DNA of 62,512 nucleotides, the filler included, from Bipalium vagum (Eukaryota): the NCBI GenBank assembly GCA_037834085.1. It is 3 parts of 3 records of this genome, joined end to end, with 100 filler letters (N's around TTAATTAATTAA, not from the genome) between each part and the next. Parts side by side here need not be neighbours in the genome. Positions count along the whole stretch, not along the records: positions 1 to 24,354 come from JBBMKC010201717.1; 2 more parts are not named here. One strand, written 5' to 3'. Below, in pieces: positions 1 through 43,814 of the stretch. The position numbers and the translations under genes were made by a program. The notes under the pieces are model-generated. The model was not told the DNA's origin. It searched no databases and saw only the letters and a program-made list of their open reading frames with translations. Within the stretch, counting starts at the first letter, position 1. Each line of letters opens with the position of its first letter.

Positions 1-833
1 TGGAACATGTGATAAACGAGTGAAAGCCGTAAGAAAATCGAACGGGTCCCTCACAGATGCGCAAGAATGTTGATATTCGCGTTTTGCTTAACTTCTGCTA
101 GCTTCGTTACAATCTCCTTTTCTGACTAACTCTGTCCATTAAATTTATAGATCTAGAAATTTAATAATTCATGTTCTTGTTTTGATAAAGCATCCAGAAG
201 CTTCTTTGTTTTTTGTCTTCTCGTAACTATACCAATATTTTCGGTGTGATCGCCAGTTATAACTTCTTTCAAATTAATTAATTAAACGATTTCGATTTTA
301 AAAAGTATTTATTTTAAAATGCCTTGTACAATCTCTAACTATAACATTAGTAGGTGATTTCATTTTATACTGTTTGACTACTAAATTTGCTAAAAGATGT
401 GGAAATTTATACTAGTTTTTTAATCATTATAATGTAAAAACTATTGGTTGAATAATTTAAAAATAAGCAATTAAGCTTCTGGTATGATTGACATCATTTA
501 TTATCGTTTTGAAAGTCATGGATTCAAAATAGGGTAGTTTAGTATTTAGTCCTACTGGTATGTCTTAGGTTTACTTTGGACCTGGACCGCCTTAGTTTGA
601 TTTGAATTTTATTACATTTTCACTGAAATATTAATTTGTATAATTATTTTCTATATTTAGTTTTTTAAAGGAATCATTTTTAATTTCAGTTTTAAAAGTT
701 ATTTTGATAAGAAATTGATAACTATTTTAAAAATAAAATAATAGAGAGATCTTAAAATAATTTTATTAGCTTTTCTATAATTGTTTTAATATTTTCTCTT
801 AGGTCATTTTATAATCATTTTGGGAATTTAATC

Positions 834-3800
834 ATGTCATCTATGGACCATATTACAACACAAAAAGAAGAAATTAAAGCATTGCGTAATATATTTGGCA
901 AAGAATTTCGATTACACAGGCCTAAAAATATCAACAAAGTCTACGATTCTATTTAACTGTATATATATTCAGTGATCACTATTTCAGAAATACGAGCCTC
1001 CTCATATATCTGTGTTGATTAATGTTGGTATTTCATCAAATAATGTCACAGAATTTTCAGTGAAAATTCACTTTGATTGTGCTATAGATTATCCCTTATC
1101 GTAAATATTCAAATTAAATGTATATATTTATTTTGAGTTTTAGTTGCCCCAAATTATCACTCTCAGACACTGTTAATATTCCAACAGCGATTCGTGAAGA
1201 ACTGATTACTGTTTTGACGAAAAAGTGTTCTGAATTAAAAGGAGTAATATATAAAAATTACCATAATATAAATTATTGCCGATTAATTAAAGAATCAAAT
1301 GATTTACCATTTGGTCGATGAAGCTCGCGAAATGTTAGTAAGTAAACTTGACAGACAAAAGTCAGCGAACGTTATTTCTCATCCTAACTATGATGATATA
1401 ATTCAGAAAGAAAAAGTAAATATTGCCATCTTTTCATATTTCATGTTTCAATTGTCACAGGTAAAATTAAATTTACTGCGCCAGCGTCACAATTTTGCCA
1501 AAGTTCTTTGTCTTTCTTTTCTGTTTTTTATTTGAAATTATTTTATCTATGTTTGTAGAACGAGTCAACTCAGGCCAAGAAAATTGAGTAATATCCTTCT
1601 GATTAACAATTTTGAAAATATATCGATTTTTAACAATTCATGTACTTTAGAAAGTGCTTTCACACTTATCAACAAAATTCCAATGTTATAGAATGCTACT
1701 ATTCTCCTGACAAGAACGTAATGCAACTGTACAAGGGAATCTGTGAAGGCAATCATCGTGTAAAGTTGATCAATAACAATTTACAATTGATTTTTAATAC
1801 TTTTCAGGGTTTCCTTAATATCGATTTTTGTTGATTATCAATTGATTAATGTCTTTTCAGGTTTCAACTTGACTAAAGGTTTAAATGCTAAAATACACCA
1901 GATCTCGTTATCCAGTGTCACACAAAAACGATTGGAGCACCTGAAGAGTGATTGGTTGGAAAAATTGGAAAAGGATTTCTCAATACTATACACATTGGAC
2001 CATCCAAACTTGTTGCCCTATGTCGCCTATCGATCTCACATTCATGACAAACAAATTCGCAAGAAAAAGTATTTCGACATCAATATAAACGTACGACACG
2101 AAATCTTTCCCAATTTGAAATTTATTTTTCTAATCAATATTTATTATAATACTTTAATTTCATTGGTCGATTGTTATTAGATAATAATGAAAGGCAATTA
2201 ATCATTAGGTAGTCGTAATTAATTTTCAAATTGAATTTAGTATACTCGATCGATTGTTTTCGGGAATGATAAAATTTACGATTTACTTTTAATTTTCCGT
2301 TCAGTATGTTACTCAAAGCTGTTCGGGTGTTAAATTATCAAAAATGTGTGAAATCGATGTGCAAAGTGAACCGGGCGGAATGAAACCCAGATTGCCAATT
2401 ACAAAAATTCGCGGTTATTTGAAAAGTGTGATGAGCGCAGTCAGGTATTTACACGAAAGACAAATTACCTTTGTTAAACTCAATGTAAGTTCGATTGATA
2501 AAGAAAGGAGATCATTGAATTTATTCATTGTTTTATTTGTAATTGCAGATGGATTCGATATTGATAGATGAAAATTTTGAATTGAAACTGTGCCATTATT
2601 ACATTGGCAAAAGGTGAGACGTTTTTATGATTTATTGATATCTTTATTAGACCTGTATAATATCGATCTCATGTTTCAAGATTTGAAGAATTGAAAGAAA
2701 AGTATAGAAAGGAATTTGCTGAAGATACAACAGAATCAACGGACACTGTTCGTTCGAAAAAGGGATCCACAAAATACGACATTTTGAAAGTGGTAATGAT
2801 TTCAATACGTAATAAAACTTTTCAAGTTTATTTTTTAATCGATTTGATTTGTTAATATTGATTTTATTTAAATACTCGTTCGAAAAGGTTTTGTCCATTT
2901 ATCTTTATTTATTTTTGTTGATATTATTCAGTCTTGATTGAATCGTTCGAATTTTTATGGAAATCAATACATTTTTTCTATTAATAAATGTTACAATCTA
3001 TTATTAATTATTAAATATAAATTTCTAATTCCTTCTGATTTTATATGAATTATGCGGTTTATTTTGTCTTTTGGAAAGAAGATTTCGTTAGTTTCATTTT
3101 GATTTTGAAATTTCCACTCTATTGATTATCTTTGATCGTCTGTTTTTCATTGCAAGTGATTGTTGAGAAAGACCTTTTTGGGACTGTTGATCTTGAAATC
3201 TGTGCGTTGATAAACTTTCATTTTAAAATGGAGTGTAAATGACGAAATATATTTTTATTTTGGTTATTTATTGGTCGATAATTAAGTTTAAATGATTTTT
3301 TCATTAAAAACCAATACTGATTTTAGTATGTAAGAAAAAAGGTATTGTGATCAGAGAATTTAGTACGAAAACTTGAAAGCTGTCATTATATTAATGTTAA
3401 TATTAAGGTTTAATGTTAACTAATTATATTCAATATCGAAAGAAATAATGGAAAATCGATAACAGACAGAGTTTGTCAAATTTCTTGTCATGTTTCTTTC
3501 ATTTTCATTATTCTGCGGAAGCGGAAATCAATTTTTTATGATAATAATAAATTATAACATTTAATTAAATCAAGAATCGATAGATTTTCCGAATTTTTAT
3601 AATCAATTCCATTTGATGTTATTATTTTTTTTCAAATTTTCCGCAAGGAATTAATTGTAATATATTTCGAAAGAGCGGTGTTTGTTTCTGGGATCATATA
3701 AAAATTAAAAATCGATTGATTAGTCGTTTTTATATCGACTTACAAATATCTGTGGGATAGTTTGTAAATTTCATTTTTTATTGATTAGGGAAAACTAGCG

Positions 3801-6800
3801 AAACAGTTGTTTTTTTTCGGAGTACCGGAACTGGAAATCAATGAAACTGAGATGCCGTTGGATCTCATCGATTTCATTCATTGCTCTGAATCCTATCCTG
3901 ACGAGTTACATCTTCATTCGTTTTTATATCCAGATAACAAAAAGAAATCTTTTCCCGATGAAATTAGCAATTTTAACCAAGGTTAGTACGAACACAGAAT
4001 TTCGTTACAGTTTTCTTTTTCTTGAATCGTAATAATTATTTATTAACATTATTATTATTTTTTGTTTTTATCTTATTACTATAATTGATTATTTTTATTT
4101 ATTATCATCATTAACATTAGCATTACTATAAATGTCATTATGAATATTATTATTAATTAAAATTATCTATACCAATCAGATCTTTCTCCATGGAAATTAT
4201 TCCAACAGAGTTCACGAATTCCAAGAGAATTTGAACTAATTAGTAAATTGGGTGAAGGTGCTTTTGGGGATGTTGTCAAAGTAATTTTTGCTTAGGGTTA
4301 CTGATTCCATGTTACTTACGCGAGGTCTTAACGAAAAATAAATTCAATTTCAGGTGAAAAATATTTACGACAACCAATTCTACGCTATTAAACGAGTTCG
4401 ACTCAATTCAATACCGAAAAAAGCTGCTCGAACAATGAAGGAAGTTCAGCTGTTATCCAGTCTGAATCACGAGAATATCGTCCGGTTAGTTTTACATATC
4501 GAAACGGTCTTCTGCGTGAATTTCTTTATGGAAATGAACTCTGAACCGATCATGTTTCGACAATCGATTGAATATTATACTTATTGTAGAAATAATAATT
4601 TTTGTTTCTAAAATCAATATAATTTGAAAATTTTTTCTAAAAACAATAATTTTAACATTAATTTATTTTTCCCATTAATTTTATGATTTATTTATTATTT
4701 AATAGCATTTACAACGAAAAATTTTAAAATAGTAAGATAATTACTGTTTTTATGGTTAATTTAATAGAAAATTTTACTTTTCTTTAATTCAATATTTATA
4801 TGTGATAGATATAGTCATTTTTAATGTGAGTTTACTGAGTATTCATAATATCCAATATGCAAATTTTACAAAAACAATTTTTAATATTTCTTTTCTTAGA
4901 TAGTTTTATTTTTCGTTTCAAATAAGTGTTCAAAGATATTTTTATTTATTTATTTTTCTTTGTAATGAGATCATTCAAGCTAATTAGATTTTACTGATTG
5001 ATTAATATTAATAATTATTGGCTATTATTTACCAATTGATGTTCAGCTATTACGCTTCGTGGTCAGAGGAAATCGTGAAAAACTCTGCTGAACAGAATTT
5101 ATCACAAAATCATTATGTAAACGCAACCTCATCTAGCATCAGGGTCAATATTAGTGATAATAAATCAATCCATAAACTGGAACACGTCAATTCTGCTCTT
5201 TTGGAAATGCAAGATACGAAGAACAGTATGCTGTTTACGAGCAGCTTACATCGTCCATCAAATTTTGGTATGGTATCGATTTTTCTGGAACTTTTTTGTG
5301 TTCAATGTTTTGTTATTGTCAGTAGTTTTGATTTTTTTTATTTAGCTGGAAATCATCATTTTGACATTGAATCGTATTCTGATTCTGAAACGGACACGGA
5401 ACTGGAGCAAAGGTATCGATTAACCTTAGAGGTTTATTATTTGAAGTAGTACCAGCAGTAGCATTGGGGAAAACGAAATGAATCCTGTGTCTGCACAAAT
5501 CGTCTTTTGTAATTCTACCTCTATTTCCGATGAAAAAAAATCCGTTAAACATTCTAAAAGAAGTTATCTTAACGATCAACGATCTGTAGCTATGCCAATC
5601 AAGTCAAAAATAGATAAGGTTTTATATTATTCATTATTATTATATACTTCCACGGCCTCTTTGTAATTATTATTAATATTATTATTAGTAGTAGTAGTTT
5701 TACGATAATTAATAATAATTGATTATAATTAATGGATAATATTATATTAAAAATTAATTGAGATTATTAATCTATTATAAATTATTGTTATTAACCAGTA
5801 GAATTTAACTATTAGGTGTGTAAATATGTAACCGGAATCCGATTAAAGCTTTCAAAGTTTTAAAATGTTGGTAGTTATATATGTTATTTTGAAATATCAA
5901 AATTAAATGTTAAAATGATTTTTTTAATATTCTATAGTTAATCTAAGATTCAAAATTTTGAAAAAGTAGCATTTGCGGGAAGTTAGGGTACTTTTTTCCA
6001 ACAAGAATGCTGCTGAGAGTCACCGTTTATTAGAGGAGACATATGGGAAAGATGCTTTGTCAAAACACAATGTTTTGAATGGTTTCATCGGTTTAAAAAT
6101 GATGATTTCATCATCAAGGATGATGATCGATTTGGGCGTCCGGAAAAGTTGATGAAGAATTGAAGACTTTACTCAGTCAAAATCCATGTCAAATGTCAGT
6201 ATCATTGGGAGTCGATCGTTGTACCGTGACCAAACGTTTACAAGCAATGGGAATGACTCAGAAACGAGAAAGACCGAGAGGTGTAGAAAGTCGTTTGTGT
6301 ATCTGTGAACAATTGCTTCAACATCAAAGACGAAAATCTTTCTTGCATCACATGTAACGGACGATGAATAATCTGAAGCGAAAAAGATCTTTGAGAGTCC
6401 GGTTCATATTTCTATATCGACGGCCAAGCGAAACATTCACGATCAAAAAGTCCATGCTATCCATTTGGTGGGATCATTTAGGTATACCATATATTATGAT
6501 TTATTGCAATCAGAAGAGATCGCTATTAACTCCAATCGATGCATTTAGGCCAAGCAACAAATGATAAACGGTCATATTATGGCGACAGGCATGATAAAAT
6601 TATTTTTTTACATGACAATGCTCGGCCGCATGTTTCAAAACTATTTACTACATACATAGAAACCCTTGGATAGGAAATCTTACCTCATCCGAAGTATTCC
6701 CCAGATATCGCTCCTTCGGAGCCTGTTCCATTCCATGTCGCACAGTCTAGGTGACCAGCAGTTTCGTTCTTATGATGACACCAGAAAATGGCTCGATTCT

Positions 6801-9800
6801 TGAATCTCCTCAAAAAATCAAGAATTTTTTCAAACTTGAATCCGTAGCCTACCTGAAAGATGGGGGCAAGTAATAGCAACTGATGGACATTACTTCTACC
6901 AAAAAATGTGTTTAATTCCTATAATAAATATTAACTTAATTATTTCTTAAAAAATTCAGGTTATATTTTCACACACCTAATAATATTCCGATTTTTCTCA
7001 ACTTCTTTTTCTAATATTTCTATCTAAACATCGATTGCCGCTATCTGTTTCAGTTTCTCATGATCCAAATGGAATTGTGTGAAGGCATGTGCAATACATT
7101 ACAGAAATATATCGAAACTCAAAAGCTGTATTTGAACAAAAGATTGATTTGGCGATTCATCCGTGAGATTGTGTCAGGTCTGGATCACATTCATTCGAAA
7201 AATATGATCCATCGAGACTTGAAGCCGAACAACATTTTCCTCGATCTTCAAAGACGAATAAAAATAGGTGACTTGGGATTAGGAATGAATTTCATTCAAA
7301 GAGTATCACTCGTCTATTATCGAATTTTTTCATTGTATTTTGTTTTCATGAAAGATTAAAGTAATTTTTCAGAGTCCCAATGATCCAGCATCCAACCAAT
7401 CGGCTGGATTGGAAGAAAATCAATTTCCCAATGAGGTCGAGAGGGGGCCGGTCGGAACTGCGCTGTACATTTCTCCCGAGATGATGTCCAATAGCTTTTA
7501 CACCAACGTAACACTGTTTTCTGGTCATTCGCGATTAATAAATCCTGCTGCGATTTTTCATTCAGAAGGTCGACATGTACAGTTTGGGAATAATTATCTT
7601 CGAAATGTGCTTCAAACCTTTCCAGACGACCTCAGAACGGTTTATTGTACTCAACAGGTTGCGACTACCCCAAATTATATATCCCAATGAGAAAGAGTTA
7701 AAAATCGATCTTCCGTTCAAACACATAATTAATTCTCTCTTGATTCATGATCACACAAAAAGACCAAGTGCCTCAGTAATTTTACTTAGTTTTAATCAGT
7801 GAGATGGATAGAGGAAGAAGGAAAGAGATACGATTATTATTATTTTGATTTTAATAGGAACTGCTCAAGTCCAATATCATTCCTCCTCCAGAAGGAAAAG
7901 AATTGGAATTCCGTCAATTTCTCATTCAATTGACGAAAACCAGTAATAGCAGTCTTTATAAATTAATGTTGAAGGAACTGTTCCAGCAGACATCGACCGA
8001 AGTAATTTGATTTTTTTGTTAAATATAAATGGTTTTTTTTTCCAGTCACGTCAATATGAACTTCCCGTACTTTATCAGTCGCCGTTCAAATACTTTTTGT
8101 CCAATACTCGCTCTCCAATAACGCAAATATTATCTGAAGATCGATTGGATGAAGGCGATTACACCTACTTCATTTTGAAAAGGTCCTTAGTTTTCCATTT
8201 ATAAATACCGATTATTCTTCACTCTTTTTAGTTTGTTATATGGTCTTTCCAGTTGAGTTATATTACTCATTCATTTTTACACATTTAACCGTTTTTAAAA
8301 AATTCTTTTATCAAAATTTTTGTAAGTTAATTCATGTGTAGTCAATTTCTTTTTAATTTTAAATTATATCGATTTTCATTGAATTTAATATTTTCTAATT
8401 AAATTATTGATTTTGTAATTAAATAATTCTATTTGACAATCAATTATGTTAGATTAATTCGTTTTTCTTTTATTGATATTGGTTTCTTCATTATATAGTA
8501 ATAATTTATTTATTGAATTGTGAACCCGTGAATTTACACTTGCAAAAAATTATTGATAATTTTTCCTTTAATAAAATTTTTTGAAAAATGATTTCATTTT
8601 ATTTTCAATCAATAATTCAACGTTGAACTATTATCATTGAATAATTTTTGTGTCTCTGGAATCAGAAATCAATTGTAATTATATTGATTGTTTCGTGGTA
8701 ATTTTTAACAAAAAATTAAAAATATATTTGATAATTGAAATTGATTGTTTAAAAATTTATTTATTTTTGTTTAAATTAATTTTTGTTATTTTATATCATC
8801 TATGATTCATCTTATTAATTTTTAGTATTATTGATTAATAATTATGTACTATCATAATTATTATAATAATATTATTAATAATCTTAGTAATAAAAATAAT
8901 AATAATTATTAATTTTTTCAATAAATTTATTTTCAAATTTAGAGACGTTTTGCGTCATCTCGAATCGGTATTTGTGTCTCATTGTGCTGTGGAATTCACT
9001 GCACCGCTATTGTCCCCAAATGTTACGAAGCACGGAACTGATAAATTATTCACTCTTTTGGATTGTGAAGGTGTTGTCATCAGCTTGCCCGACAATCTCC
9101 GAGTCAACTTTGCGGACTTTCTCCTCAACAACAATATCACTTCAACAAGGCGTTTTGCAATCGGTCCAATTTATCAGCACCAAGAATATCGACGGGATCA
9201 TCCACGAGAACTGATTGAAGCGGCTTTTGATATTGTGACTGATTATCACAGGTTTTTTCAGAGCTTTGTTTTCAGAATAAAATAAATAATTGCATTTTTT
9301 GTTTCAATGACAATTGTTCCGTTACAGTATTAACAAGTCGATCGAGGTGCTCATTATTCTTAATCAGATTCTCAAAAAGTTTTTCAAAATTGAAGTAATA
9401 TTCTTGATTTTTTCATCAATAATCCATTTCAAAATATTCGTCTGAGTTCAGCATATCTCATTAATTCTGGAAATCAATCACACGGATCTGTTTGATGGTT
9501 TAATGGATTATTACAAAATTCCCAAGGAACTCTGCCAAAAACTTCGTTCTTCTCCATTCCAAAATCAGGTAAATTAATCGATATTTTTAGTCATTATATT
9601 ATTTATTATTATGGTATTATCTTTTGAAATTACATTTATTTTTATGTTATTAATAATAATTATTAAAATTTTTCCAATAATTAATTTATAACTATTATTG
9701 ATATTTTTTTACTTTAACAAAAAATAAATCAATACATATTGCTTAAATTTATTGTTATTTTTAATTTCTTGAAGGATTGGACAATTATCATTGTCTTATT

Positions 9801-12800
9801 TTTTAGGCGATTATAAATCTTGAATAATTTTGCTAAAGTAAAAAGATTTTTTATTCTTAATGATTTTTTGTAAAAATTTTTAATTGTTCTCATTGAATCA
9901 ATAATCGATTGATATTTTATAATTTTATTAGCACTGCGATTATATCATATATTATATATTAATTATATCAATATTATTTTTCTATTACTTATCTTTTATA
10001 ATTTAATTTATAGTTTTTATTATTAATTCTAAGAATTTTTTTCCAAAAATTACTCAATCACTTTATCAATATTGTTTATATTTTAGTACTTTATCAAAAA
10101 TAAGTCAATAGAATCTGTTTATATTTTTGCTATTTTTACTTGTTTGATAGGAAAGAGCTATTGTTATTGTTTAGTTTTTTGACTATTAAAATAAATATTG
10201 CGAAAGCAAAAAAAGTTTTCCTATCGCTCGTTGATTTTTTAAAAATTTTTTTTAAAAAATTTTAATTTCTTCTCATTGTAACGAATTTTTTCTTTTGATT
10301 AAATGACAAAATTTAGACTTTATCTGATATCGATTATTTGGATTCTGATGAGTTCCGTGAAAGTTCCAAATTACCCGAGATCCATTTGGTCAATCTAAAA
10401 AATATTCTTCGATTCAATGACGGAAGTCTGGATGGTTTTGAGAAGCTTCTGAAGCAGTTTTTGAACCGTACTAGTGATTTGAAGGTCTCTACATTCTTCC
10501 TTTCTGAAATATGTTTTAATTTTCTATCTCTATTTCCAGAGCTTTGATGTGATAATGATAGCCCTGAATGAGTTACGAACGATGGAGCAACATTTCAACA
10601 ATTGTCTTGCCAACCCTTGCTTTGCCATACAAATTCGACCTAAATTCGTACCCGTGGACTCAATTTATCGTGGTTTTGTATTCCAGTTGATGTTGTACAT
10701 ACACGACCGACTTTTTGACTGTGTCAATTATTCAAACAAGAAACAGGCCAAATTTCTTATGAAATATTTGAGGAATCCAAAAACATTGGGCAATGGTGGC
10801 GATTATTCTCGTTATTTCCTGTCTGCGCAGAGGTAATCTTTCACTCTTTGCTTTATATGGATTATAAGAAGTTCCATTTTGAAATTGTTTAGTCTCTATC
10901 AGTGTCATCAATTGTAATTTGTTTTTGACTGATCGTAAAATATTATTAGGTTTGAAAAAACGTTCGTGTACTTTTAAGTATTGGAATTTATTAATCATTT
11001 AGTTGTTGTTTAAATAAGATAATAGTCTTTTGTGATAATTAAAATATCATTATGCAAGATAAAAAATTGTATTTTAAAAAGCGCAAGAATTTTCTTACCA
11101 ACCATCTAAAAAATATTGATCCATTTCCACTGAAAATAATTATCTGTCGATATCAAACACAGTTTGGTGGGCGATTATATCGATTAATTCTTTTCTATTT
11201 CTATTTTTCTTTAATACCGGTCATTGTTTTCGAATATATTTTTGAGTAGTATTGATTAAATTATTTAAATCGAGTTTTCTCTTAACCTGTATTAAATTTC
11301 AAACTATTGAAAATAATATTTTATATATAATATTTTAATATAAGCGCATAAATATTTTTATTGATTTGATATTTTAAATTTAAATATTAATTATAAATCA
11401 ATACTGCTCTTAATAATTGATTTAAATTAATTTACAACTGTTTTCCTTTTTCCTCTCACATCACTGTGTTAATGTTTAAAAATGAGTGCTGTGAATTATA
11501 AATATATAATTTTCTCAGTGTAAACTGACTGGAAAACTTTGACAAAGTGGATTTCTTTTATTATTATTTATGGTTATTTTTGATTTGTTTGTCTATCTGG
11601 CGATTATCATTGGCTTTTGATAAAAATTGTGACTGACAATAAAATGTTTATTCTTTTAAAAATCTGTCGAATATCTAATCAGATGTCACTACTTGATCAA
11701 TGAAATCAATATTTTTCAATTTCTAATCGATACAAACCGACTTAAGGTCTGATAATAATCGTAATAATTATCTTTCTCATTTCATTTGTCAGTCCCGCTG
11801 TGACCGAAAACGGCGACACGAACACCGCATTACCCGTGTCAGCGGTCGGGGTCAGCATCGACGTTTCGACCGTGTTGCAGTGCTTGTATTCGATCAGACA
11901 ATTGTGCCTCATCAACGGTGATTTTGAAAGTCGACCTGTATGTGATTTTTTTCTCATCGATTTTCGTGTGCTTGTGTGTACTGCACCGATATCATGTGCT
12001 TTTTTGTGTGTTGGCGATTGTGAGAATGTTTTAAATGTCTGTCGTTTTCAGGAATCGATCGTTGTCAATGGCATTGTCACCGCTCTGGTTCAATACGACG
12101 CGGACAACGATCTCAATTGCCGTGAACTGATGACAGCTCTTTGGACCGCAGGCATCAGCGCTCAGCTTTATGATTTGGTAATCGATTTTTGACAAAAGTA
12201 TTTTTTCATTAATGTTCGTTATTCTTTCAGGACGGAAATGGGGAGGACTTTGCGTTCAATCGGAAAATCAATTTCTTCGTTAAATTTTTACCGAAAAACG
12301 ACAAGAAATCGTCAAGCGTTGTGAACAGTCGAATTTTTATCACCAAAAATAGCGATTACAAGGGTGTGGGAGTCGAATTGGATGATTCGGCCAAAGTCGT
12401 TGAATTCATTTCCAGAGAATTGTCAAGGCTCAAAGAAACATGTGTGCTGCGCAGTGAAAAAGACAAGTTCGAAATTTTCGACTTTTTGATTATCGATCTT
12501 CATTTGACTTTGGTATTTTCACAAACAGCATAAATCTACCAAAACTATTATTATTGATTTATTATCAATCCCTAGATTACACTATTTTTAAACGTAAAAA
12601 GCAAAAAACATTAAATTCTTTATTTATTCTTAAATTTATTTTGCATATTTATTACACAAAAGAAAGGAATAAATAAAATCCTTTAGAATTAGTATTTTTA
12701 ATAATATTGGTTATTGGTTTTAGATGATCTATCACTTTGGAGGATACTGTAGAAAGAAAATATTTCTATATAAATTAAAATTATTGATTGTAAAAATAAT

Positions 12801-13927
12801 ATTTTTGAAATATAAAATATTGATTTTTAATTGTTGATCACATAAAAGTGAAGTGTCATTGTTCAGATTTTGTTTTAGATTTGAAATTAAAACATAAAAT
12901 ATCGATTATTTTTTAAAAATATTGATTTTGAAAAATCCATAACATTTGTTTGTGATTTTACAAAAGAACATTTTTATATTAAATTTTTTTTATTAGTAAA
13001 ATAATAATTAATAATTGTAATAATCAATAATTTAAAAACAATCAATTATAATTATCAGTAAAATATTAATAATAAATATTATAATTCGGTTAGTTATCTT
13101 TCATTAATAAATTGATATCATAAATTTTCTGAGTTGCACTGCCTATAAATGTTGTACACAGGTTTCAAAGACAAAGGAGTGACAGTGCTTCACTGGAATC
13201 ATCAATGGAAATCGATTTAAAGAAAATGATGAATACTAATAAAACCGAAACAACAATGGCCAGTCGATATCTTTATAAATTTATCAATGTCAAAGACGGT
13301 AAAATCAGCGCCAGTCGCGATTTGTGTCTGTCGTACTTTGTCGAAACCCAAAAGCACATGCAGTCGCTAATTCAAAAGCATGTTGACATCGATAATTCAC
13401 AAATCAAAATTGTTGCCAAACTCAACTGTCATTTGTCAAACTTGAATCGCTGGTTGCAAGGCCGGTTCCCTAATCCTTTGTTTTGCATTGTAGCAGAATT
13501 GTCCTCTGCCAAATGTCGTTTGCTGTTGGAAGAGGTCAACTTGAAATCTTTGAAGGATCCAAATAAAGTGATGAAAATACTCAACAAGGTTGAATCGGCG
13601 AAAATTTACTCAAGCAATGTGTAAGATTTCCTCTATCGATTTTGTTATTGCTATTATTATTTATTAATATGATTATTATTATTAATTTTTTTAATCATAT
13701 TTTCACGGAAAAGAGATTCATGACAAAATTTTTATTAGTAACGGTGAAAAACAATGGAAAGACATTCTTCCAAGGATATGGGAAGCTATGCAAATAGCAG
13801 TGAAAGAAAAAATGTAATTTTATTTTAAAACACTTGTCTTTAAAAAATAATATTATTATTTTCAAGATTCAAAATAGTTCTCTACAGTCATGTCGATGAT
13901 AGAATCGAATTTGTGGAAATTAAATAA
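834..13927 (+). CDS. GCN2: eIF2-alpha kinase GCN2 (RWD - pseudokinase - kinase - HisRS-like - C-terminal domain), ~33 exons
   Basis: Manually spliced GT-AG exons keep frame: 834-938, 988-1100, 1144-1243, 1293-1415, 1461-1502, 1559-1587, 1651-1808, 1861-2090, 2305-2484, 2549-2613, 2681-2792, 3789-3981, 4180-4280, 4354-4484, 5047-5267, 5346-5412, 5447/5450-5618, 7054-7302, 7373-7507, 7566-7775, 7858-8001, 8046-8182, 8943-9251, 9328-9394, 9452-9568, 10317-10484, 10540-10832, 11793-11937, 12052-12177, 12231-12466, 13162-13620, 13739-13813, 13867-13927. Motifs: RWD (EEIKALRNIF...DYPLSCP), SRIPREFELISKLGEGAFGDVVK, YAIKR, LNHENIVRYY, IQMELC, HRDLKPNNIF, GTALYISPE, KVDMYSLGII, HPRELIEAAFDIV, terminal IVLYSHVDD. 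Some internal boundaries are uncertain. Confidence 0.95.
5812..6980 (+). mobile_element. mariner element (Mos1/mauritiana-like), decayed near-full-length copy in a GCN2 intron
   Basis: TA-flanked TIRs TTAGGTGTGTAAATATGTAACC / GGTTATATTTTCACACACCTAA; frameshifted transposase motifs NAAESHRLLEETYG, CFEWFHRFK, SIWWD, FLHDNARPH, HPKYSPDIAPS. Confidence 0.92.
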
Positions 13928-14714
13928 AATTTGTCTTTTCTCTGTCTATTATTTTATTTTTTTGAACTAAGACCAACGAAAAATTGACAACCTTAATCAG
14001 GAACACGGTTAAAGTGTTGTAAATAAAAATTTAAAAATGTAAATTAATTATCACGCAAATTCAACATACAACCTTATAGCTTGACATATTAACTTTTTGG
14101 TCGTAATTACAAAGCGTATCTGTTTTTATTTTAAAGTTCTAAGTAAAAATTGGTAATTTTATATTTGTTTACAATTATAAACTTTGTATTAACGCTTCTG
14201 GATTGATATTGCATTTGTAGCTACACTCATAATAAAACTTTGGTTTTAAAAATACTCGTTTATTAGCTTTTCTGGGTAAAACTTTAGTAAAGGGCAGAAC
14301 TATACAATTTTTCAATTAATTAATATTAATAAATGCTATTGGTGGGTCAAAGAATCACGTTCTTTTTAATTTATATTTTTACAGCTCTAATATAGTTAAA
14401 GATTTGAATTTAGGATTAATTAAAAAGAAATTTAGAAATGAATTATTTTTAGTCAGTAAGTAAATTAAATAAGTTTTTATCTAGATAATTTATAACATTT
14501 TTCAAGTGGTTTCCCAGTAGTTTAAATGCATCTTGTCTCCGAATTTTCATTTATCAGAAACATTATTGTAAGGATTAAATTAAATTAATATTAAATAATA
14601 AATCAAATATTAAAATTTTAATCCTCAATGTAAAATATATTTTTTAAATAATTAAATTAATTTTAATAAAAGTTAGATAATTAATTTGTTTAAATAAAGG
14701 ATAAAAACTAACTA

Positions 14715-17700
14715 ATGTCGAGATAAACGCATTAATGAACCTTATGCGCGAAGCAATAAACCCTGTAATTTTCAAGAAAGGTGACGACATCGAAAAATTT
14801 ATTAAAAGTTGCACCAAATATTTTGCATGTGTTGATATAAATAAAAAAGAAAAAGGTCTGTTAGTGGTAGGAATAATTGATCGAGAGCTAAGGGAAGCCT
14901 ATGAATGCCAAGATTAATCTCTAGATTATGAAGATCGTCTGAGAAAGACAACTTTAATGCAGGACTTAGAAGAAGCAAAAAGTACAAAAGGATAGATGCG
15001 AATATCTATTTGTACAAGAAGAAGATCGAAGGATTAGTCAATAAAATTTTGACGCATACGCTGGACAAATAACAATTAACAAAGGAGATCATTGTTAATA
15101 GTTGACAAGATTTAAGAATTCAAACGAAAATTAGGAAATTCAGAAGATATATTCGAGGCGATTAAAACATGATTTGAGCGAGACGGACAACATTAATGTA
15201 GTTCAGAGTTAGAGTCGTGTTTTAAAAAGGTCATAAATTAAAAACACGGCCAGTGAAAGACCACGACCTCAAAAAGTTATTCCACATAGAGTCAGAAATA
15301 AGGTGACTTGCTAGTATTGTCAAAAAATTAGGTTACATAAGTCGAAGATGCCCGGAAAAAAGAAGTCGTGTTATGCATGTGGATCTGATCAGCACCTGAG
15401 AAGTCAGTGTGAAAGGATAAGATGTACAAGATGTGATAGGAAGGGAAACCGTACAGAGGAATGTTACATAAATCTGAGACAGCGGCCTTACAGGCAAGGA
15501 AATGACAACTTATTTTTTAACCGAATAAGCATTGAAAACAGAAGATATGATGGAAACAACGGGTTTTTAAACTTTGGTAGAAGGACAGGAGGTAATAATG
15601 GATATAAAAGAACAAACCACACCGGATACGTAAGTGCGATTGCAGAAGAAGAAGAATATGTAACAAGAGGATACAAGATTTACTATTTTAATAAGGAAAC
15701 GAACAGTTACAGAAAGGAATCCCCAAAAGTTCAGTTGATTAAAGCTCTAAACTAGATACCAGTTCAGATCGCAATATTTATATTTATAATAGAAGTAGTT
15801 TTATCAATATTATAAAAGACAAAGAGAATGTTGATAGAAAGGTATATTCTTTCATAAAGAAAGATAGTTGCAAAAAAGATATGAATGATGAGCATAATGA
15901 TAATAGAATAATTGCCATAGAATAGACCCATAAAGTGAAGATAAAGTAAGACATTATGCAAGGTAGACTTAGTGTTGAGGTTAAAATTCGAGGAAAGTGC
16001 TTTGAATGCTTATTAGACACAGGAGTGAAGAGAAATGTGATGAGCCAATATATACAATTGCGTCCATATGTTTTTGGCCACTCTGTAAATATCGAAATAA
16101 TTGTAGATTACAAATTATATTGAAAGTTTTATGATTTGAACAACGTTAATTTAGAAATATGTTTATGTTAGCTTTAAAACTCATTAAAAAATTATTGCAC
16201 AACTATTAAAATTGATTTGTTATCTAAAGGCGTTTCTTAAATTTTGATGTGATTTAAATATATAAACTATTTTAAGGATAATTTTTTAAAGTAAAATCTA
16301 TATGTACAACAATTTGCTAATGCTTAAGTAATATTTTTTTTAATTTTAGAAATTCTTTTGTTAAATATGGATAAGATATCCATAGATATTCGGAAACAGG
16401 TTATTGAGAAATTGAAAGAGGTTTTGTCCCCAGAAAACAGCTTGTGATCTTTTTATCAATTGGAAAACAAGCCAAACTAACTCACTTAGTACTGTGAAGC
16501 GCATTCTGAGAAAGTATGGCTTATCCGGACGAATTGTAGCGAAGAAACCATATTTAAGCGAGTGACATATAAAAAATCTTTTAAATTGGTACAGAGATTA
16601 TAGCAAACTGCTTCTTTCTTTTTGGAATGAGGTGATTTTTTCTGATGAAAGTCACACAGAACTGTTCTCTAGAAGAAGACAATACGTCCGCAGTACTGTT
16701 TACAAGAATGTCATTTGACATAGCAGCAGCGCCAGGAACGTTCCAAGAACTAATGACGAAGGTATTGGATGGTCTAGAGAAAACAATGGTATATATAGTA
16801 ATTCCAGAAAAGTGCAACTTATTACGGAAAGAAGTACTTAACTACTTAAGTAGTTTGGATATGGATTTGATTTATAGACAGGGTGAAAAGCACACCAATG
16901 CTGATATGCTTTCAATAATTAAGCGCGAAATGTGTTGCCAATGTCAAATGCACCACAAAGATCCGAAGACAGAGAAAAAAATCAAGGCAGATAAATCAGA
17001 TGATGAAAATAAGTAGATGTAAATGGCAAGACAGTGTAGCGGAAATCGAGACGATAAAAAAATATTCTGGAAGAAAACGTTACGAAATTTAAAATGGAAA
17101 ACGATTTAGTGAAAACAATAGAAACAAGGATTTGGATGATAAAAGAAATGCATGTTTTATTAACACATGCTGCAACAGAAAAAGTCACCAACTACATTAC
17201 CAATAACTATGACATGGAAGACCTGAATAAGATCACGGCAGAAGTAATAAAACAATGTATGCCTTGTCAAAAGAATAAAGTAAACACCACAGCAACGAAA
17301 GAAGCTACAATCATGTTATGTGCAGAATGTCCATTTGAAAAAATTTATATTGATATATGTGGATCATTTCGAGTAATAGTGGAAAGGCGAAAATATATAT
17401 ATGTGGAATCAGCAAACAGATTGAAGAGACTATAAAAAAAGTGATAATGGAAAAATGGATCCTGAGATTTGAAGTACCAAAAGAAGTTCATGTAGACAGT
17501 GGCAAGACTTTTGAATCAAGAAGCTTCAGAAACTTGTTAGACTCAATGAATATAAAACTATATGTCTCGAATCAGTACCATCACAATACGAATGGAATAA
17601 TTGAAAGACAATTTCGTACGATCAGAGATTGCATTTACGCTATATCAGATGATGGTAGGTGGGAGAATTGGAGCTCGAAGTTACCAGATATTGAATATAT

Positions 17701-17930
17701 GATAAATGCAACAAAACAAAAGACATTGGGAATCTCACCAGCAGAGATGATATTCGGAAGGAGAATACACAGAGAACAATTGTATTAAACCGAACGAGTT
17801 GACGATGAGCTTAGGGAAAAATAGCCGACAAAAAGACAGTTCCAAATCTGAGATGAAGTTCTGGTAAAGCTTAAGGGAAGATCAAAAGACAATGAAAGAT
17901 ATCTAGGCCGCTATAATTTTACGGAAAAGT
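14715..17930 (+). mobile_element. Ty3/gypsy LTR retrotransposon internal region, decayed (gag with three CCHC knuckles, protease, RT/RNase H scraps, integrase)
   Basis: Knuckles CYACGSDQHLRSQC and CTRCDRKGNRTEEC plus a broken one at ~15305; protease CLLDTG (~16005); RT FTRMSFDIAAAPGTFQELM; RNase H end IYRQGEKHTNADMLS; integrase HHCC (H-LLTH...CMPCQ) and D,D,E (IYIDICG, HVDSG, NGIIER); multiple stops and frameshifts. Confidence 0.9.
16055..16652 (+). mobile_element. Tc1-like transposon 5' fragment nested in the gypsy protease
   Basis: TA then TIR-like CAATTGCGTCCATATGTTTTTGGCCAC; transposase remnants MDKISIDIRKQVIEKLKE, STVKRILRKYGLSGRIVAKKPYLS, WNEVIFSDES. Confidence 0.85.
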
Positions 17931-18799
17931 ATTGAAATTTATTACTTTTTCAAATTTTTTGTTATTTAACAGTAAGATATTATTTTAATTTACATGGTTG
18001 TAGTTCTGTACGTAGAAGAATTTTAATGTAAACGATTGTTTTTATAAAATTAATATTGTTATGTTTGTATATTTAATTTTTGATATGAAAATTATTTTTC
18101 TGGAAATTAAAATTAAATTATTTGTTCATCAAAATTTACTTTTTTCCTATTCTACAATTTGTACGTTTATCACATTGGTAAGAAAATAATTGCTTTTAAT
18201 GAGTACACTTGTTATTAAAAATCTGAAATACACAACTTTTAATATAAGCAATACATTTCAACAAAAGCAAAATGATCTTATTTGAAATATGTTTGGTCTT
18301 CTAAAATCGATAAACTTATGAAAGAACATCTCTGTAGTTTTTGAGGCTTTTACAAAATCTACTTTTCATTACAATTCTAAATAATAATTAAATAATTCTA
18401 ATAACTCATTATTAACATATCCATTAGTCAATCATCAAATTCTTAACATAATTAAATTAAATTAAATCTATAATATTGTGTTAAATTAAAGTAATTTATA
18501 TAATAAATATTAATTAAAATTATAAATTATTTAATCATATTAAGGTTAGTTGTATAAAAATCATTAATTATAAAATTCCAAGATATTTTATAAATTTTTT
18601 TATAAAAAAGTTAATTCACGTATAATCAATTTTAAAAACACGATGTCATTAAGCATAAATAAAATATTTATTTTCTTTAAAAATGTTTCATTAATTTTTA
18701 TAAGAAAAGTACTGAGATGTGTTGACGAATCAATAATTACACATGTGTCTACGCAATACAAGTCAGAGTTTCACATCAGCTGACATCTTATCTCGGGTC

Positions 18800-19070
18800 G
18801 TCAGATCAACTTAAGTCTTCATACCTACCTCGTGATTTCTTTAAAATATCTCGATGATCAGATATCGACGCGACTATCAGTTACACTCTGAATTTAAGTG
18901 TGTTTATTCTGAGAAGATCTTTGTCCTGAGCACGTATTTTTAAAGCGATCATCAGTTTTGAAGAGGAGTCCCAAACTCAGTAGTCAATTTTGGAGGCACT
19001 GACTCTACCAGCATCATACATTGATGGAAGCTTGGGATCATGGGTCTGCAGAAGATTAATTTGACGGATC
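18800..19070 (-). mobile_element. non-LTR (LINE) APE-endonuclease remnant
   Basis: Minus-strand frame with stops reads ...SASKIDY*...ASISDHRDI, matching the IDY and SDH motifs at the APE C-terminus. Confidence 0.5.
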
Positions 19071-19817
19071 CAATTATTATTTGAAGAGTATGGATTTTTT
19101 ATTTGTTATTTGCTTATTATTATAATACAAAAATTCTAAGAAAAATCTTGTTCTGCTCAGTCGTCTTTGACATACTTATTCCGTCTGAGAAGATTTTTTT
19201 CTTTTGTTTATTTGTTTGTTGTAATTCTTATTATATGAAACCAACAAAAATACAACGAATCAGACGAAAATGATCTGACTTCAACAAAATCATGATTTGA
19301 ATTTTATCTTCATTATCATTATTTAAATCTAACTCGAGATGGAAAATGTGATGTTAAAACTGCAGATTATTGTATCTTTACTTTATGGGAACAAATTCAA
19401 AAAAAGCAGAATCGCTTATTAGTTTATTGTTTATTCAGATTTGAGTATTTATGTTTTTTTATATGAATGTACAATTCATAATAAATTTATCAAATAGCAG
19501 TTCCAGAATTAATCCTTTACTTATTAAGGTTATTGTGTGAAATATTTTTTAATTAATCAACTAAATACATTAACATGTATTATTAAAAGTGAAGAATTAT
19601 TGCTATATTTTTTGTCTTGTTTGATTAGGAATTTTTAAATCATTCGTTATACAGTTATATAATATATACATCTTTTAAAAACTTTAAATGATATTTCTTG
19701 GTTTTGTTTATTTAATTCAATTTTCATTATCCATTTTACAATATTTTAAAATTCAAACGTGCTTCTTTAAATAATCTTTATTTTATATCCTATGTTAAAT
19801 TAAAATTATATATTTAG

Positions 19818-21011
19818 GATAGTGTTGAAATATATCGAAATGAGGACTACCTTGTCAAAAACTATCAAGTGTCTAGCGGAGATAGGATTTGTGAATATTA
19901 TACCTTAGTTTTACATCAATCTCTTAGTTACACTAAATGTTTTGTTGTTTCTAATTTAAATGGGGAATTAATTACTTATCACGAAGAAGAAAATAATCTA
20001 GTAATATGTGATTAACTATTCAAGTGTTTTCTATACTTCTCAATTTAGATCACTAAAAAAGACGGTTACAAAGAACTGGTACCTGAAGAATTGATAGAAA
20101 AGGCATTTGAATGTATAAAATGTTCAGTATCGAACTTTAAGTCAATGGATTACGATTCATGTGTGCGATTTTATTGAATAATTGAAAACGACATTAAGTG
20201 ACATTTTGTTTAAGAAAATAGCGTGCATGAGTATCTGTACCCATCGCAATGTGGCCGTTGCCTGGAACAAAAAGACTGGTCAATCTTTATACAATGCTCT
20301 TGTCGAAGAAGACCGGCGTTGTGATGATACTTGTCAGAAACTTATCCAGAAGTCTTGGAGAAAGTCCAGGACTAACTTTCAAGTGCATTTCTTATGTTGT
20401 TTTAATGTAATGATTCTTGTTCCAGCATCTTTGTGGATTGCCAATTAGCACAAAATGGGCAGGAGTTAAGTTTCGGTGGTTGTTGGACAACATTGGTAGC
20501 GTTCGTGATGCTCTGCGCGACGGTGAATTGTGCCTTGGCACTCTGGACTCATGGCTGCTTTGGAAACTGACTGGTGGAAAGTCATATTCAATCGATTTGA
20601 CAAATGCCAGCTATACGATGCTCATGAATTTGCATCGGTGCTCCTGGGACTCATCGATCTGTAAATTCATCGGTATCGATCTTTCAGTGCTGCCAGACAT
20701 CAAAAGTTGTTCGGAAATCTTTGGGACTATCGATTTTCAATCACCGACTGGAATGGGTGGCTTAGCAATCACGGGAGTCATTTGCGACATCAAAGCTAGT
20801 GTTATTGGACATCAGAGCACCAAGCCAGGTTCTGTAGGAGTACATGTTGATCCTGAGTTGGGTTCCAGTCACGTTACGATCACAGTTGGCGATGAGGTTC
20901 AGTTTTACCGATATTTGCTAAAAAGCGTAGGTTACGTTTTGAGCACTGTCTCATATCAGTTGGGACCAAAAGCCAATGTCATATATTCTCTCGAAGTATG
21001 ATAAAAATAGT

Positions 21012-21071
<60 letters not shown>

Positions 21072-21938
21072 TGATAATAATGATAATAAACCAGTAATAA
21101 ATGATATTAAAGACCAATATCATTTTTCACTGTGGCTGTGTTCCAGGCTACTCTTTACAACAGCCAAAACTTGTTGTCATGGTTCCGGGAATGTCTGCGT
21201 GTCTCATCAAATCCCGATGATTTGGATAGTGTTGTCAACTCCGTCTCAGATTCCGATGGGTGTTTCTTCATTCCGACAACGGGAGCGTTCCATAGTTCCA
21301 TAGACCGATGCCAATATCGGCACGTGAATTTGTGGGGATTGAACCTGACGACATCACGACCGGGCCATGTTGTCCGAGCTGCTTTAGAAGCCGTTGCCGT
21401 TGAAGTTTCGCAATTCCTGTCAACAGTAGCCCACGTTGTCAGCAAACCATATGATATTTTGAGTGTTGGTGGTCGAGGACTAGATCGTGCCGATTCCTTT
21501 TGTCAAATCATGGCCGATCACACGGGGCTCAAGGTTGAGCGGTTGGCCATGTCGGAGGCTGTGATTTTGGGTGGTGCTTTAGTCGCCGCCATTGGTGCCA
21601 ATCTCGATCCGTCGGGACTGCAGGGTCCGATAAAAGAAGGGTTTCCGTGTCTCATGGTTCCAGGGGAACGCAAGAAACGATGTCGACAGTGGACGAGTCT
21701 TGCCAATGAGCAAGAGCTGCTCGATCATCGGTTCTGGATTGGGGGGGATGATGAGGTTACCACCGGTTACGACCAGCCCGCAGGTATTATGCATTTAAAA
21801 AACCGAAAGTATTTGTCGGGGGGGAACCGTAATTTTGCATTGCGTGCACTGGCAGTATTGATGATAGGAACTCCGTTCACTTTAATCGGGTTTGGAGCCG
21901 CTTTATTAATTAGTCGATCTAGATTTAATATATTTTAA
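19818..21938 (+). CDS. glycerol kinase-like (FGGY family) protein with degenerate catalytic motifs and C-terminal TM anchor; start codon not in the first recognisable exon
   Basis: Exons 19818-20000, 20049-20162, 20215-20382, 20426-20995 and 21147-21938, all phase 0 and open (~608 aa). GK motifs: AWNKKTGQSLYNAL, GVKFRWLLDN, GTLDSWLLWKLTGG, DLTNASYTMLMN, YSLE, HVVRAALEAVA, CQIMADHTG. Confidence 0.88.
21013..21068. repeat. (AAT)n microsatellite inside GK-like intron 4
   Basis: ~18-19 perfect AAT units. Confidence 0.97.
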
Positions 21939-22858: not shown

Positions 22859-23300
22859 CAGTATAACCTCTAAATCCCCATCGCTGTATTCTTCTGCTCT
22901 CTGTAAACCACCAGTTTATAGACCTTTATTTTTAAAATTTCTATAATTTGTCAATAAATTTTAACAATAATAACATAATTTACATAATTATATATAAAAT
23001 ATTTCGAGTTTTTATTTTATAGAGGTTTTAATTTATTTAAAATTTAGATAATGAATAATAAAAGGAAACGTAGAATTATCAAAAATTGAAATTTCAAGAT
23101 ATTACAACAATAATACAATATCTGATAATAAAGTTGGAAATATCTGTTCATTGAAATTTTAATACAAACAATAAATTAAATTCTAAAGAATAAACGCAAA
23201 ATTTTAGAAAATTCCGAATTTAATACAAAGCACAGAATACCAATGTTCAAATATAAAAGCATCGACACTCTTCTATCATACTGGATAGACAACTTATGTA
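22859..23300 (+). mobile_element. pogo/Tigger-like transposon 5' remnant
   Basis: TA + CAGTATAACCTC terminus; CENP-B-type HTH remnant NNKRKR...KNKRKILE...KYKSIDTLLSYWI. Confidence 0.6.
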
Positions 23301-23334
23301 CAATTCTTACTGATAACTTAATAGTTTAAAAAGC

Positions 23335-24093
23335 TTACATATGATTGGAAAGTCATATAAGGCTACTGTCTGGATACCCCATGAATTGACCGAAAAAATG
23401 AAGCTGTTAGACTATCTGTTTGTCAATCACTGATTCTAAATAACAACGGTGATCCGTTTCTTCAAAGTATTGTCACGTGGGACGAAAAGTCAATTTAGTA
23501 CCACAATCATAAAAGACAAAAGCAATGATTATTTCCAGGTGAAACCTCGATTCCAACACCAAAACCAGGTCTTCATCTTAAAAAAGCTATGCTTTGCATT
23601 TGGTGGGATTGTCATGGGGTAATCTATTGGGAATTGCTCGAATCAAATCAGACAATTAATGCAACAGATCAATTGGACAAATTAAATGAAAACTTGATTA
23701 AAATTCGCTCAGCTTTATTCAACAGGACAATGCCAAGCCACACACCTCGAAGATCACATAAAAAATGAAAGACTTCGGATGGGAAGTTATGGCTCACCCA
23801 CCATATAGCCCAGACATTGATCCAACAGATTTTTATCTCTTCAGATCTTTGCAGCACTTCTTGTCTGGAAAAAGATTTCTAAATGAAGATCAGATCAAAA
23901 AGGAGATCCAATCATTTATTGACTCTAAATCTTCCTCGTTCTTTGAAATAGGGATGAAATGCTTGGTTGACAAGTGGCAGGCTATAGTAAAAAATAATGG
24001 CGATTATGTGATTGATTTATAATACATTCAAATGTAAAAATTTGTAAAATAAAATTTTGAGATAAAAACGAGATTACTTTCTGACTCACCAAA
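23335..24093 (+). mobile_element. mariner transposase remnant (3' two-thirds with right TIR)
   Basis: WIPHEL, IVTWDEK, MLCIWWD, HPPYSPDIDPTDFYLFRSLQH, NNGDY; terminus ...CTGACTCACCAAA-TA. Confidence 0.9.
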
Positions 24094-24277
24094 TAAATTA
24101 AATTTTGTACATAAGACAAAAATTTATTCAGTGAAAAATTTACCATTTGAACCAATTGTTTACTGTCAACGGTCAAATAAAAAGGAATTTTTGAAAAAAT
24201 ATTTTTTACGGGTAGAAAACCCTAAACGCTCAAATTATTAGAAGCTTGATTGATGTGACTCTGATTTTATTTAAATG

Positions 24278-24354: not shown

Positions 24355-24454
24355 NNNNNNNNNNNNNNNNNNNNNNNNNNNNNNNNNNNNNNNNNNNNTT
24401 AATTAATTAANNNNNNNNNNNNNNNNNNNNNNNNNNNNNNNNNNNNNNNNNNNN
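24355..24454. other. assembly gap with artificial linker N44-TTAATTAATTAA-N44
   Basis: Exactly 100 nt; the 12-mer gives stops in all six frames; identical construct at 45914-46013. Confidence 0.97.
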
Positions 24455-43090: not shown

Positions 43091-43457
43091 TGAATATAAA
43101 TGTTATTCGTTCTAAAAGATTACTTGTTTATGTTTTTTTGCTGATTAAATTTCTGTTTTTTCTAATAAATTATTTTTTAATCAATTCTAAATTATTAATA
43201 GTGTGAATTACCAATCTTAATGAGATTACAGTTCTTTAAATATAAATTTAATATTTTAAAAAATTATATTTTCAATACATTTTAAAACAAATAACGCAGA
43301 AATTACAATAAATTTAAATTATTCAAAAACTTTCTAACATTAATTTTTATCTATATAGACAAATTTTTAATTTTCATTAATGGATAAACAAATTGTGGGG
43401 TATTGTTTTAAAAAAGATTGTTTAAAATCTCTGTTGCTAAAATCAATATATTTAAAA

Positions 43458-43814
43458 ATGTCCCTTAGATTTAAATTCCATCCGAAATACACATTTTTTC
43501 TGAATATAATAGCAGTGACATTTATATGTGGAATAATAATTATCCTTATAATTAAAAGGAGTTCAAACCAAAAGGATTATAATCTAGAGGATTTTAATAA
43601 TCTTTTCCATGATGAGTTTAACTCTCATCATACATGGTTAAATTCTCAAGAAGGATTAATAAACAACTCTTTAATAGAAGCACTGAAAATAAAACACGTC
43701 AACATTTCTATATTAAAAATGCATTTGTCTAATTTAAAGCAATCTATGAAATTGTACAAAATTGATATGGAAAACAAAATAAAATTATTTCAAAAGGATC
43801 TGTTACTGGAATAG
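43458..43814 (+). CDS. small orphan single-pass (type II) membrane protein, 118 aa
   Basis: Open 357-nt frame in ~80% AT DNA, AAAA-ATG context, basic N-terminus, hydrophobic stretch FFLNIIAVTFICGIIIILII, helical C-terminus; AATAAA at ~43883. Confidence 0.55.
   Translation: MSLRFKFHPKYTFFLNIIAVTFICGIIIILIIKRSSNQKDYNLEDFNNLFHDEFNSHHTWLNSQEGLINNSLIEALKIKHVNISILKMHLSNLKQSMKLYKIDMENKIKLFQKDLLLE

Follow-up and report, generated by a model that had tools for sequence, protein, structure and literature searches.

ATCRAT (R, either purine) is the in vivo motif of the CUT-class protein CUX1 (PMC5499738), and the male germline stem cells of both Schistosoma and Schmidtea express and require Onecut, another protein of the CUT class (PMC7817839). 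In C. elegans, periodic A/T clusters (PATCs) form a pervasive intron feature, for which a role in marking host genes for expression in the germ line has been proposed (PMC4947018). These papers, and the others given below by PMC number, are cited for the portions consulted. Here, we analysed a window of 62,512 nucleotides from the flatworm Bipalium vagum (assembly GCA_037834085.1), in which the gene for the eIF2-alpha kinase GCN2 carries a pervasive short word. An earlier note on this DNA had reported a strong enrichment of the palindrome ATCGAT confined to the GCN2 gene body. The pattern is real, strong and sharply defined, and it rests on one window. The true word is AATCRAT, not merely ATCGAT, and it is about seven times over-represented along the GCN2 body, matching the known target of the CUT family.

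The AATCRAT word along the GCN2 gene

The fitted edges of the word-rich domain coincide with the GCN2 gene, and a weaker echo is found in the next gene, which is glycerol-kinase-like (GK).

834..13927, plus strand: gene for the eIF2-alpha kinase GCN2; the model has 32 exons, a coding sequence of 4974 nt for 1657 aa, and 31 GT-AG introns of 37-1435 nt
1588..13927, no strand: AATCRAT-rich domain, 75 strand-sites against 10.1 expected, with 33 ATCGAT and 61 ATCAAT/ATTGAT; mean spacing 129 nt, random
834..1587, no strand: 5' part of GCN2 without the word, 0 AATCRAT against 0.6 expected (small numbers)
about 19818-21938, plus strand: GK (FGGY) gene, with an FGGY kinase match
20214..21938, plus strand: GK 3' exons with the weaker signature, 29 ATCG against 13.1, 3 AATCRAT against 0.7 and 4 ATCGAT; the introns total only 292 nt

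The GCN2 exons were placed from three-frame displays, and the gene model is inferred from sequence alone. All exons are free of stops, all 31 intron phases are compatible and the kinase pieces match Pfam Pkinase. The best match, P0220 (1728 aa), was aligned to the kinase exons; it has RWD, kinase and weak HisRS-like domains, a layout that reads as that of GCN2.

By script, the window holds 54 copies of ATCGAT, of which 33 lie between 1622 and 13635, exactly at the positions that had been counted by eye. The density is 2.75/kb in 1622-13640 and 0.42/kb in the rest of the window (P = 2e-11). Outside the domain the earlier tallies were recovered too, with 1 copy in 14000-19800 and 9 in 22000-50000. 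Markov models of orders 0 to 4, trained on the domain itself, predict 4.0, 7.6, 9.8, 17.1 and 25.6 copies, respectively, for the 33 observed (Poisson P = 2e-19, 8e-12, 4e-9, 4e-4 and 0.09). The order-0 value bears out the earlier estimate of roughly 4, and the excess persists after correction for di- and trinucleotide composition (33 against 7.6 and 9.8), the check that the earlier note had named as able to undo it. It fades only at order 4, where the model already includes the word. When the domain is compared with the rest, ATCGAT ranks first among 2058 hexamer classes, and the top two of 7243 7-mer classes are AATCGAT (35 vs 19) and AATCAAT (40 vs 30). The 33 copies fall into exons (9), host introns (22) and a mariner element (2).

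Two-change-point fits place the ATCG domain at 900-14000, that of ATCGAT at 1600-13700 and that of ATCAAT/ATTGAT at 1700-13300, compared with 834-13927 for the gene model; upstream of GCN2 the window offers only 833 bases to such fits. In these bases (1-833), AATCRAT is found 0 times against 0.7 expected. Observed and expected numbers are 4 and 4.9 in the gap between GCN2 and GK, 14 and 10.8 in RIM, 8 and 3.8 between RPL23 and a SERBP1-like gene, and 10 and 9.5 in JPH. RIM, JPH, RPL23 and the SERBP1-like gene are without the signature. The claimed confinement to GCN2 holds for the domain edges, which fit the gene, but not for the GK exons, where ATCG occurs 32 times against 13.4 expected and where the smaller cluster seen by the earlier note is indeed present, with 4 ATCGAT. 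A weak background came from a metagenome scan with a GCN2 kinase exon, which returned 80 generic kinase loci (28-58% best-segment identity), none recognisable as a flatworm orthologue. In 21 of these 80 (GC <0.40, at least 1.9 kb), 11 ATCGAT were found against about 33 expected, and the best AATCRAT ratio was 8 vs 2.4.

The nature of the word emerges from the host introns of GCN2 (7079 nt). ATCGAT occurs there 22 times against 1.8 expected, and ATCAAT/ATTGAT, which had also been said to be dense, 49 times against 13.5; the corresponding numbers are 8 and 13.5 for ATCTAT/ATAGAT, and 6 and 3.7 for ATCCAT/ATGGAT. Of the eight remaining classes with one mismatch, GTCGAT alone shows a similar rise, with 4 counts. 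ATCAAT/ATTGAT alone is thus co-enriched among the well-counted neighbours, which strengthens the likeness to CUT-homeodomain sites pointed out earlier. Other words containing TCGA had been described as dense as well; they do show a mild rise, but the excess is mostly that of ATCGA. In the other non-coding DNA, masked for sequence resembling transposable elements (TEs; 22683 nt), ATCGAT occurs 8 times against 6.3 expected and ATCAAT/ATTGAT 49 times against 43.6.

The word also extends beyond six bases. In the context AAT_RAT, the central pyrimidine is C in 56/100 cases in GCN2 introns and in 24/128 elsewhere (P = 6e-9, in a comparison of 34 nested contexts). There is no such excess in TAT_RAT (24/84, and 26/98 outside) or in the C/G-led contexts (10/35, and 15/60 outside). 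The share of C in AAT_RAT is reproduced in split halves of the data, being 32/57 and 24/43 for odd and even introns, and 26/47 and 30/53 for the 5' and 3' halves. The effect of an A 5' of the core is strong, and an A after the core is preferred more weakly. Around the 33 palindromes the flanking pairs are A..A or T..T in 13 cases, A..T in 6 and T..A in 0, all small counts. The spacing of the word is Poisson-like (coefficient of variation 1.02, null 0.91-1.31), no pair distance up to 60 nt is in excess in the GCN2 domain, and tests for tandem clustering of the sites found none. No strand bias was found in the intronic CA/TG form, which counts 21 vs 28 under a T-over-A skew.

The neighbouring genes and open frames of the window are as follows.

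43958-44430, minus strand: RPL23, unusually divergent, with at most 83% identity to any protein among the matches listed
48663-49409, minus strand: SERBP1-like single-exon open reading frame of 248 codons, with tandem NGERKF-type repeats, a SERBP1-like end and no Pfam match
43371-43814, plus strand: open frame of 147 codons with a hydrophobic start, ending near the 3' end of RPL23; no Pfam match

The name of the gene at 48663-49409, for which Pfam gave no match, is our assumption from a presumed likeness to SERBP1. RIM was identified by its C2 domain. The first JPH exon shares 79-83% identity with the junctophilins of trematodes and cestodes, compared with about 56-66% for most others, which places the host among the flatworms; RPL23, with best identities of 82-83%, gave no such placement. 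At the C-terminus of the FGGY kinase, an extension (21700-21938) ends in a hydrophobic, membrane-anchor-like stretch. The window itself consists of three joined parts; 24355-24454 and 45914-46013 are filler joins outside the genome, and each consists of a 12-base A/T spacer with 44 N on either side. Two contigs of one sequencing run equal the window at 48-5656 and 6908-11060, with 0 differing letters. At these stretches an assembly artefact is not behind the pattern, with the proviso that the run may be the source of the window and not independent of it. Host polymorphism was not found in the contigs of this one run, possibly the window's own source, which were compared with the window up to about 14500.

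Exon proximity and codon choice

Many copies had been described as lying in introns close to a splice site. The eight sites listed are indeed all in introns, none of them more than 25 nt from a splice site of the model; for the one at 12492 this depends on the chosen donor at 12467. The CG form of the word indeed lies near exons, as 8/22 intronic copies are no more than 25 nt from a donor (P = 0.009, weighted for composition) and 16/22 no more than 80 nt from an exon. In contrast, the CA/TG form lies deep in introns, with 3/49 within 25 nt of a donor and 13/49 within 80 nt of an exon (exon proximity of the two forms compared, P = 5e-4), and its density is 8.6/kb in intron interiors vs 4.2/kb near exons. 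Summed, the two forms are flat at about 10/kb, with 11/71 within 25 nt of a donor (P = 0.2). The proximity to splice sites is therefore a property of the CG form and not of the whole word. GCN2 introns have a GC content of 26.5% beside exons and 19-20% inside, and we read the choice between CG and CA centres as following this gradient and not as a splicing signal. It would also be possible to take the word as an intronic splicing element that acts in the RNA close to 5' splice sites, and the 8/22 donor-near copies speak for it. However, in 2 of these 8 the first letters belong to the donor itself, and without them the count falls to 6/22 (P = 0.04, one of many tests). In addition, the CA/TG form has no bias towards donors, both strands are used, and exons and the depths of introns are densely covered by the word too. 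We regard a splicing element as extremely unlikely.

The word reaches into the coding sequence, where it shapes synonymous codon choice in GCN2. Shuffling synonymous codons with amino acids and codon usage fixed gives a mean of 3.2 ATCGAT in GCN2, and none of 500 shuffles reaches the observed 9. For GCN2 and GK together, the observed number is 13 and the mean 5.0, again with 0/500 reaching it; GK alone has 4 against 2.0 (59/500). The total coding CpG does not differ from the shuffles (283 vs 286), and ATCG in the other four genes is as expected (21 vs 20.2). Isoleucine is encoded by ATC in 9/12 cases before Asp (GAT) and in 6/8 before Asn (AAT), compared with 30/113 before codons not starting with G. 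Two further features of codon usage were seen in GCN2 and the FGGY kinase. Phenylalanine behaves in the opposite way to isoleucine, with TTC in 5/34 cases before a G-starting codon vs 36/71 otherwise, and third-position GC climbs in both genes from about 0.2-0.3 in 5' exons to about 0.45-0.65 in 3' exons.

Candidate explanations

One suggestion of the earlier note was a local process creating CpG within an AT_AT context. In this vein, a neighbour-dependent repair or gene-conversion bias in transcribed germline chromatin might fix C:G over T:A, with no reader and no function. CpG is consistent with such a bias, being raised in GCN2 introns (119 observed, 85.9 expected) and lowered in other non-coding DNA (243 and 289.6). 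Mean third-position GC is 0.39-0.40 in GCN2 and GK vs 0.16-0.29 in RIM, JPH, RPL23 and the SERBP1-like gene, the CG form tracks the GC-richer exon flanks (16/22 vs 13/49), and a CpG-favouring bias is documented in Apis (PMC4406589). However, a T-to-C bias at the centre shifts counts among the four pyrimidine-purine centres, which are linked by transitions, without raising their sum. This sum is 15.7/kb vs 6.3/kb, a 2.5-fold rise (P = 4e-12), which implies more than conversion. The all-A/T precursor ATTAAT is not depleted but 1.5-fold up, and the other centres are at 0.56-1.09-fold. Therefore, a plain CpG-building bias is insufficient, and the whole word appears to be retained by selection or protection, not merely converted. 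Intron GC is not raised either (21.6% vs 22.4%), and a 7-base asymmetric context is, in our judgement, long for a repair bias. We consider this explanation somewhat unlikely. A general CpG-favouring conversion was rejected, with intron GC unchanged, coding CpG at 283 vs 286 and the effect limited to one context.

A dead transposon inside GCN2 bears on the same question.

5935..6975 (approximate ends), plus strand: dead mariner copy in intron 17 of GCN2, with a Mos1 match at E 3e-4, 198 relatives and high repeat depth; holds 2 of the 33 ATCGAT
6535..6540, no strand: ATCGAT in the dead mariner, an apparent gain; a Ser codon where 78/88 aligned homologues have Leu and 0/88 Ser

The site at 6126 uses an Arg codon conserved in 11/11 homologues. 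The alignment at 6535 implies that one T-to-C gain completed the word, which would suit a repair bias acting on dead DNA; it is a single event and an after-the-fact find. Position 6537 is absent among the listed mariner differences, and the gain may therefore predate this insertion. Among the 36 best-supported differences between the element and its family copies (best 40 of 189 rows), 6 removed a CpG and 1 created one, a loss rate not above chance (P = 0.17), and 4/34 changed conserved codons went from Arg to His or Gln. Both numbers argue against a process that builds CpG. The gain at 6535 cuts both ways, as will be seen below for a protein reader.

The word could alternatively be the long-term equilibrium of old, TE-poor DNA, the introns of the other genes being young TE debris. 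By an eye-drawn mask, TE-like sequence makes up 13% of the intron length in GCN2, 39% in RIM and 53% in JPH, and a decayed long-terminal-repeat retrotransposon remnant with integrase zinc-binding and core domains (about 15300-17800) separates GCN2 from GK. However, in exon-flanking intron DNA of equal GC, the CG form ATCGAT occurs 17 times in 4642 nt of GCN2 and 0 times in 3460 nt of the other genes; therefore, TE load alone is insufficient for the contrast. The exons of these genes, old DNA as well, hold 2 copies against 1.4 expected, and masked non-TE DNA is without the excess (8 vs 6.3 and 49 vs 43.6). In the most AT-rich stretches, the contrast in the CG form is smaller yet kept, with 6 in 4036 nt vs 5 in 14137 nt. 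An equilibrium of old DNA thus seems quite unlikely. Further decayed mariner-type copies lie at 23170-24120, 25750-26790, 36180-36900, 56200-56950 and 58050-59250; they are too diverged from each other for a DNA match and are linked by translated search.

In invertebrates, gene-body methylation spares the 5' end and covers broadly expressed genes. The layout in GCN2 resembles this, with the CG form near exons and the CA/TG form further inside introns, and the word might be the target of a base modification (5mC, 4mC or 6mA) over gene bodies, ATCAAT/ATTGAT being relics of deaminated ATCGAT. However, methylation erodes CpG, which is in excess here, so that a source of the word would still be needed. 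Gene-body CpG methylation was rejected on the same count, since CpG depletion is seen neither in introns (119 vs 85.9) nor in exons (198 vs 180.9). In addition, Schmidtea has DNMT2 only and undetectable 5mC (PMC3824064), and planarian triplet spectra are described without CpG loss (PMC10899757). We judge a base modification very unlikely.

A protein-read mark had also been proposed by the earlier note, as a gene-body or a splice-proximal mark. The gene-body branch, with a putative reader, fits best, and the splice-proximal one lacks support for the whole word. We put it at slightly less than an even chance that the word represents dispersed putative binding sites of a CUT/ONECUT-type protein, accumulated in the body of a germline-transcribed gene. 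A CUT-class protein of the ONECUT or CUX type would read AATCRAT and occupy GCN2 in the germ line, and this occupancy in heritable chromatin, of germline or stem cells, would make the word stick. This could happen by weak selection on many additive sites. Alternatively, bound sites may be less prone to mutation or more efficiently repaired, and a sequence that had become the word would then be kept; base-excision repair enzymes are stimulated by CUT domains (review PMC10515288). The process would act in the transcribed bodies of broadly expressed genes, some hundreds of bases past the start, and not in neuron or muscle genes, and the local GC gradient around exons would set the CG or CA centre. 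Its most likely role would be to tag the host gene for staying open, by analogy with the PATCs. The CUX1 motif, the germline role of onecut, CUT-assisted repair and the lack of 5mC in planarians together favour the CUT-class reading over its rivals. What the window itself displays is that the word is in excess, is specific over 7 bases, fits the gene limits, reaches into synonymous codons and is absent from four other genes.

Several points weigh against a CUT-class reader. In human cells, CUX1 binds fewer than 4% of the ATCRAT words that lie in open chromatin (PMC5499738), and the motif by itself is therefore a poor guide to occupancy. De novo motifs in the accessible promoter regions of constitutive Schmidtea genes consist of the Initiator only, in what we consulted of PMC10558129, which concerns promoters and not gene bodies. 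The CUT factors of C. elegans serve pan-neuronal genes (PMC10515288), and here RIM is without the word (14 vs 10.8). The whole case consists of one strong gene, GCN2, and one weak one, GK. RPL23 and the SERBP1-like gene, which are presumably expressed in the germ line, are without the word, but both are short. The gain at 6535 would have changed a CA/TG into a CG form, a step needless for a reader of both, and the TE-like mask outside GCN2 was drawn by eye. Finally, other word differences of the domain introns, CTAG and CC-rich words, hint at a wider compositional regime. Between GCN2 introns and other non-coding DNA, CTAG counts 1 vs 25 and CGATTA 18 vs 5, and four-letter words rich in CC/GG are depleted.

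In its boldest form, the CUT-class reading would make the word a hard-wired code of this flatworm lineage, whose planarian relatives are without DNA methylation where studied, a carpet over the bodies of broadly or germline-expressed genes that is read by a germline ONECUT/CUX protein, replaces gene-body methylation and steers synonymous codons; we hold this to be unlikely. The question touched is by what means animals that lack DNA methylation distinguish their constitutive host genes from DNA full of transposons, and the word is bimodal between neighbouring genes. If a protein held the word along a gene body, this would represent a kind of gene marking not described before. If repair bias is the cause, the word would instead record a mutational signature that is limited to genes and unusually long in its context. 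Either cause affects analyses of codon usage and of neutral sites in this lineage. In the open-access literature, outside of which most subscription papers lie, no description of such a pattern and no flatworm sequence code for host-gene recognition were found; the supplementary motif tables of planarian ATAC studies may bear on novelty. PMC12660999, PMC11398382, PMC11410931, PMC5737696 and PMC11490551 held nothing decisive in the portions consulted.

Comparison with known systems

The Drosophila DNA replication-related element (DRE, bound by DREF) and BEAF-32 sites have the ATCGAT core in common with the GCN2 word, and the earlier note had drawn this link. The DRE octamer, which we take to be TATCGATA, is present at 0 of the 33 sites. 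Unlike DRE, a promoter element, the GCN2 word spares the 5' end, with no ATCGAT before 1622. An identity with DRE/DREF was therefore rejected. The honeybee resembles GCN2 as an AT-rich invertebrate with a CpG observed/expected ratio above 1, but its excess is genome-wide and at the dinucleotide level (PMC4406589), whereas that of GCN2 is limited to the gene and to one context and is accompanied by a non-CpG form of the word. Like the PATCs, the GCN2 word is a pervasive feature over the introns of one gene. PATCs, however, are A/T clusters with a 10-bp period, while the GCN2 word is an aperiodic 7-base word found in coding sequence as well.

Known CUT-class sites (ATCRAT for CUX1; ONECUT/HNF6) form discrete peaks at promoters and enhancers, unlike GCN2, where about 94 cores, on average one every 129 nt, are distributed evenly across 12 kb that include exons and introns alike; the comparison is one of motif likeness only. 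In that likeness, the GCN2 core ATCRAT takes either purine and its transversion variants are not enriched, as at CUT-class sites, and the preference for A before and, more weakly, after the core may correspond to the presumed ONECUT consensus.

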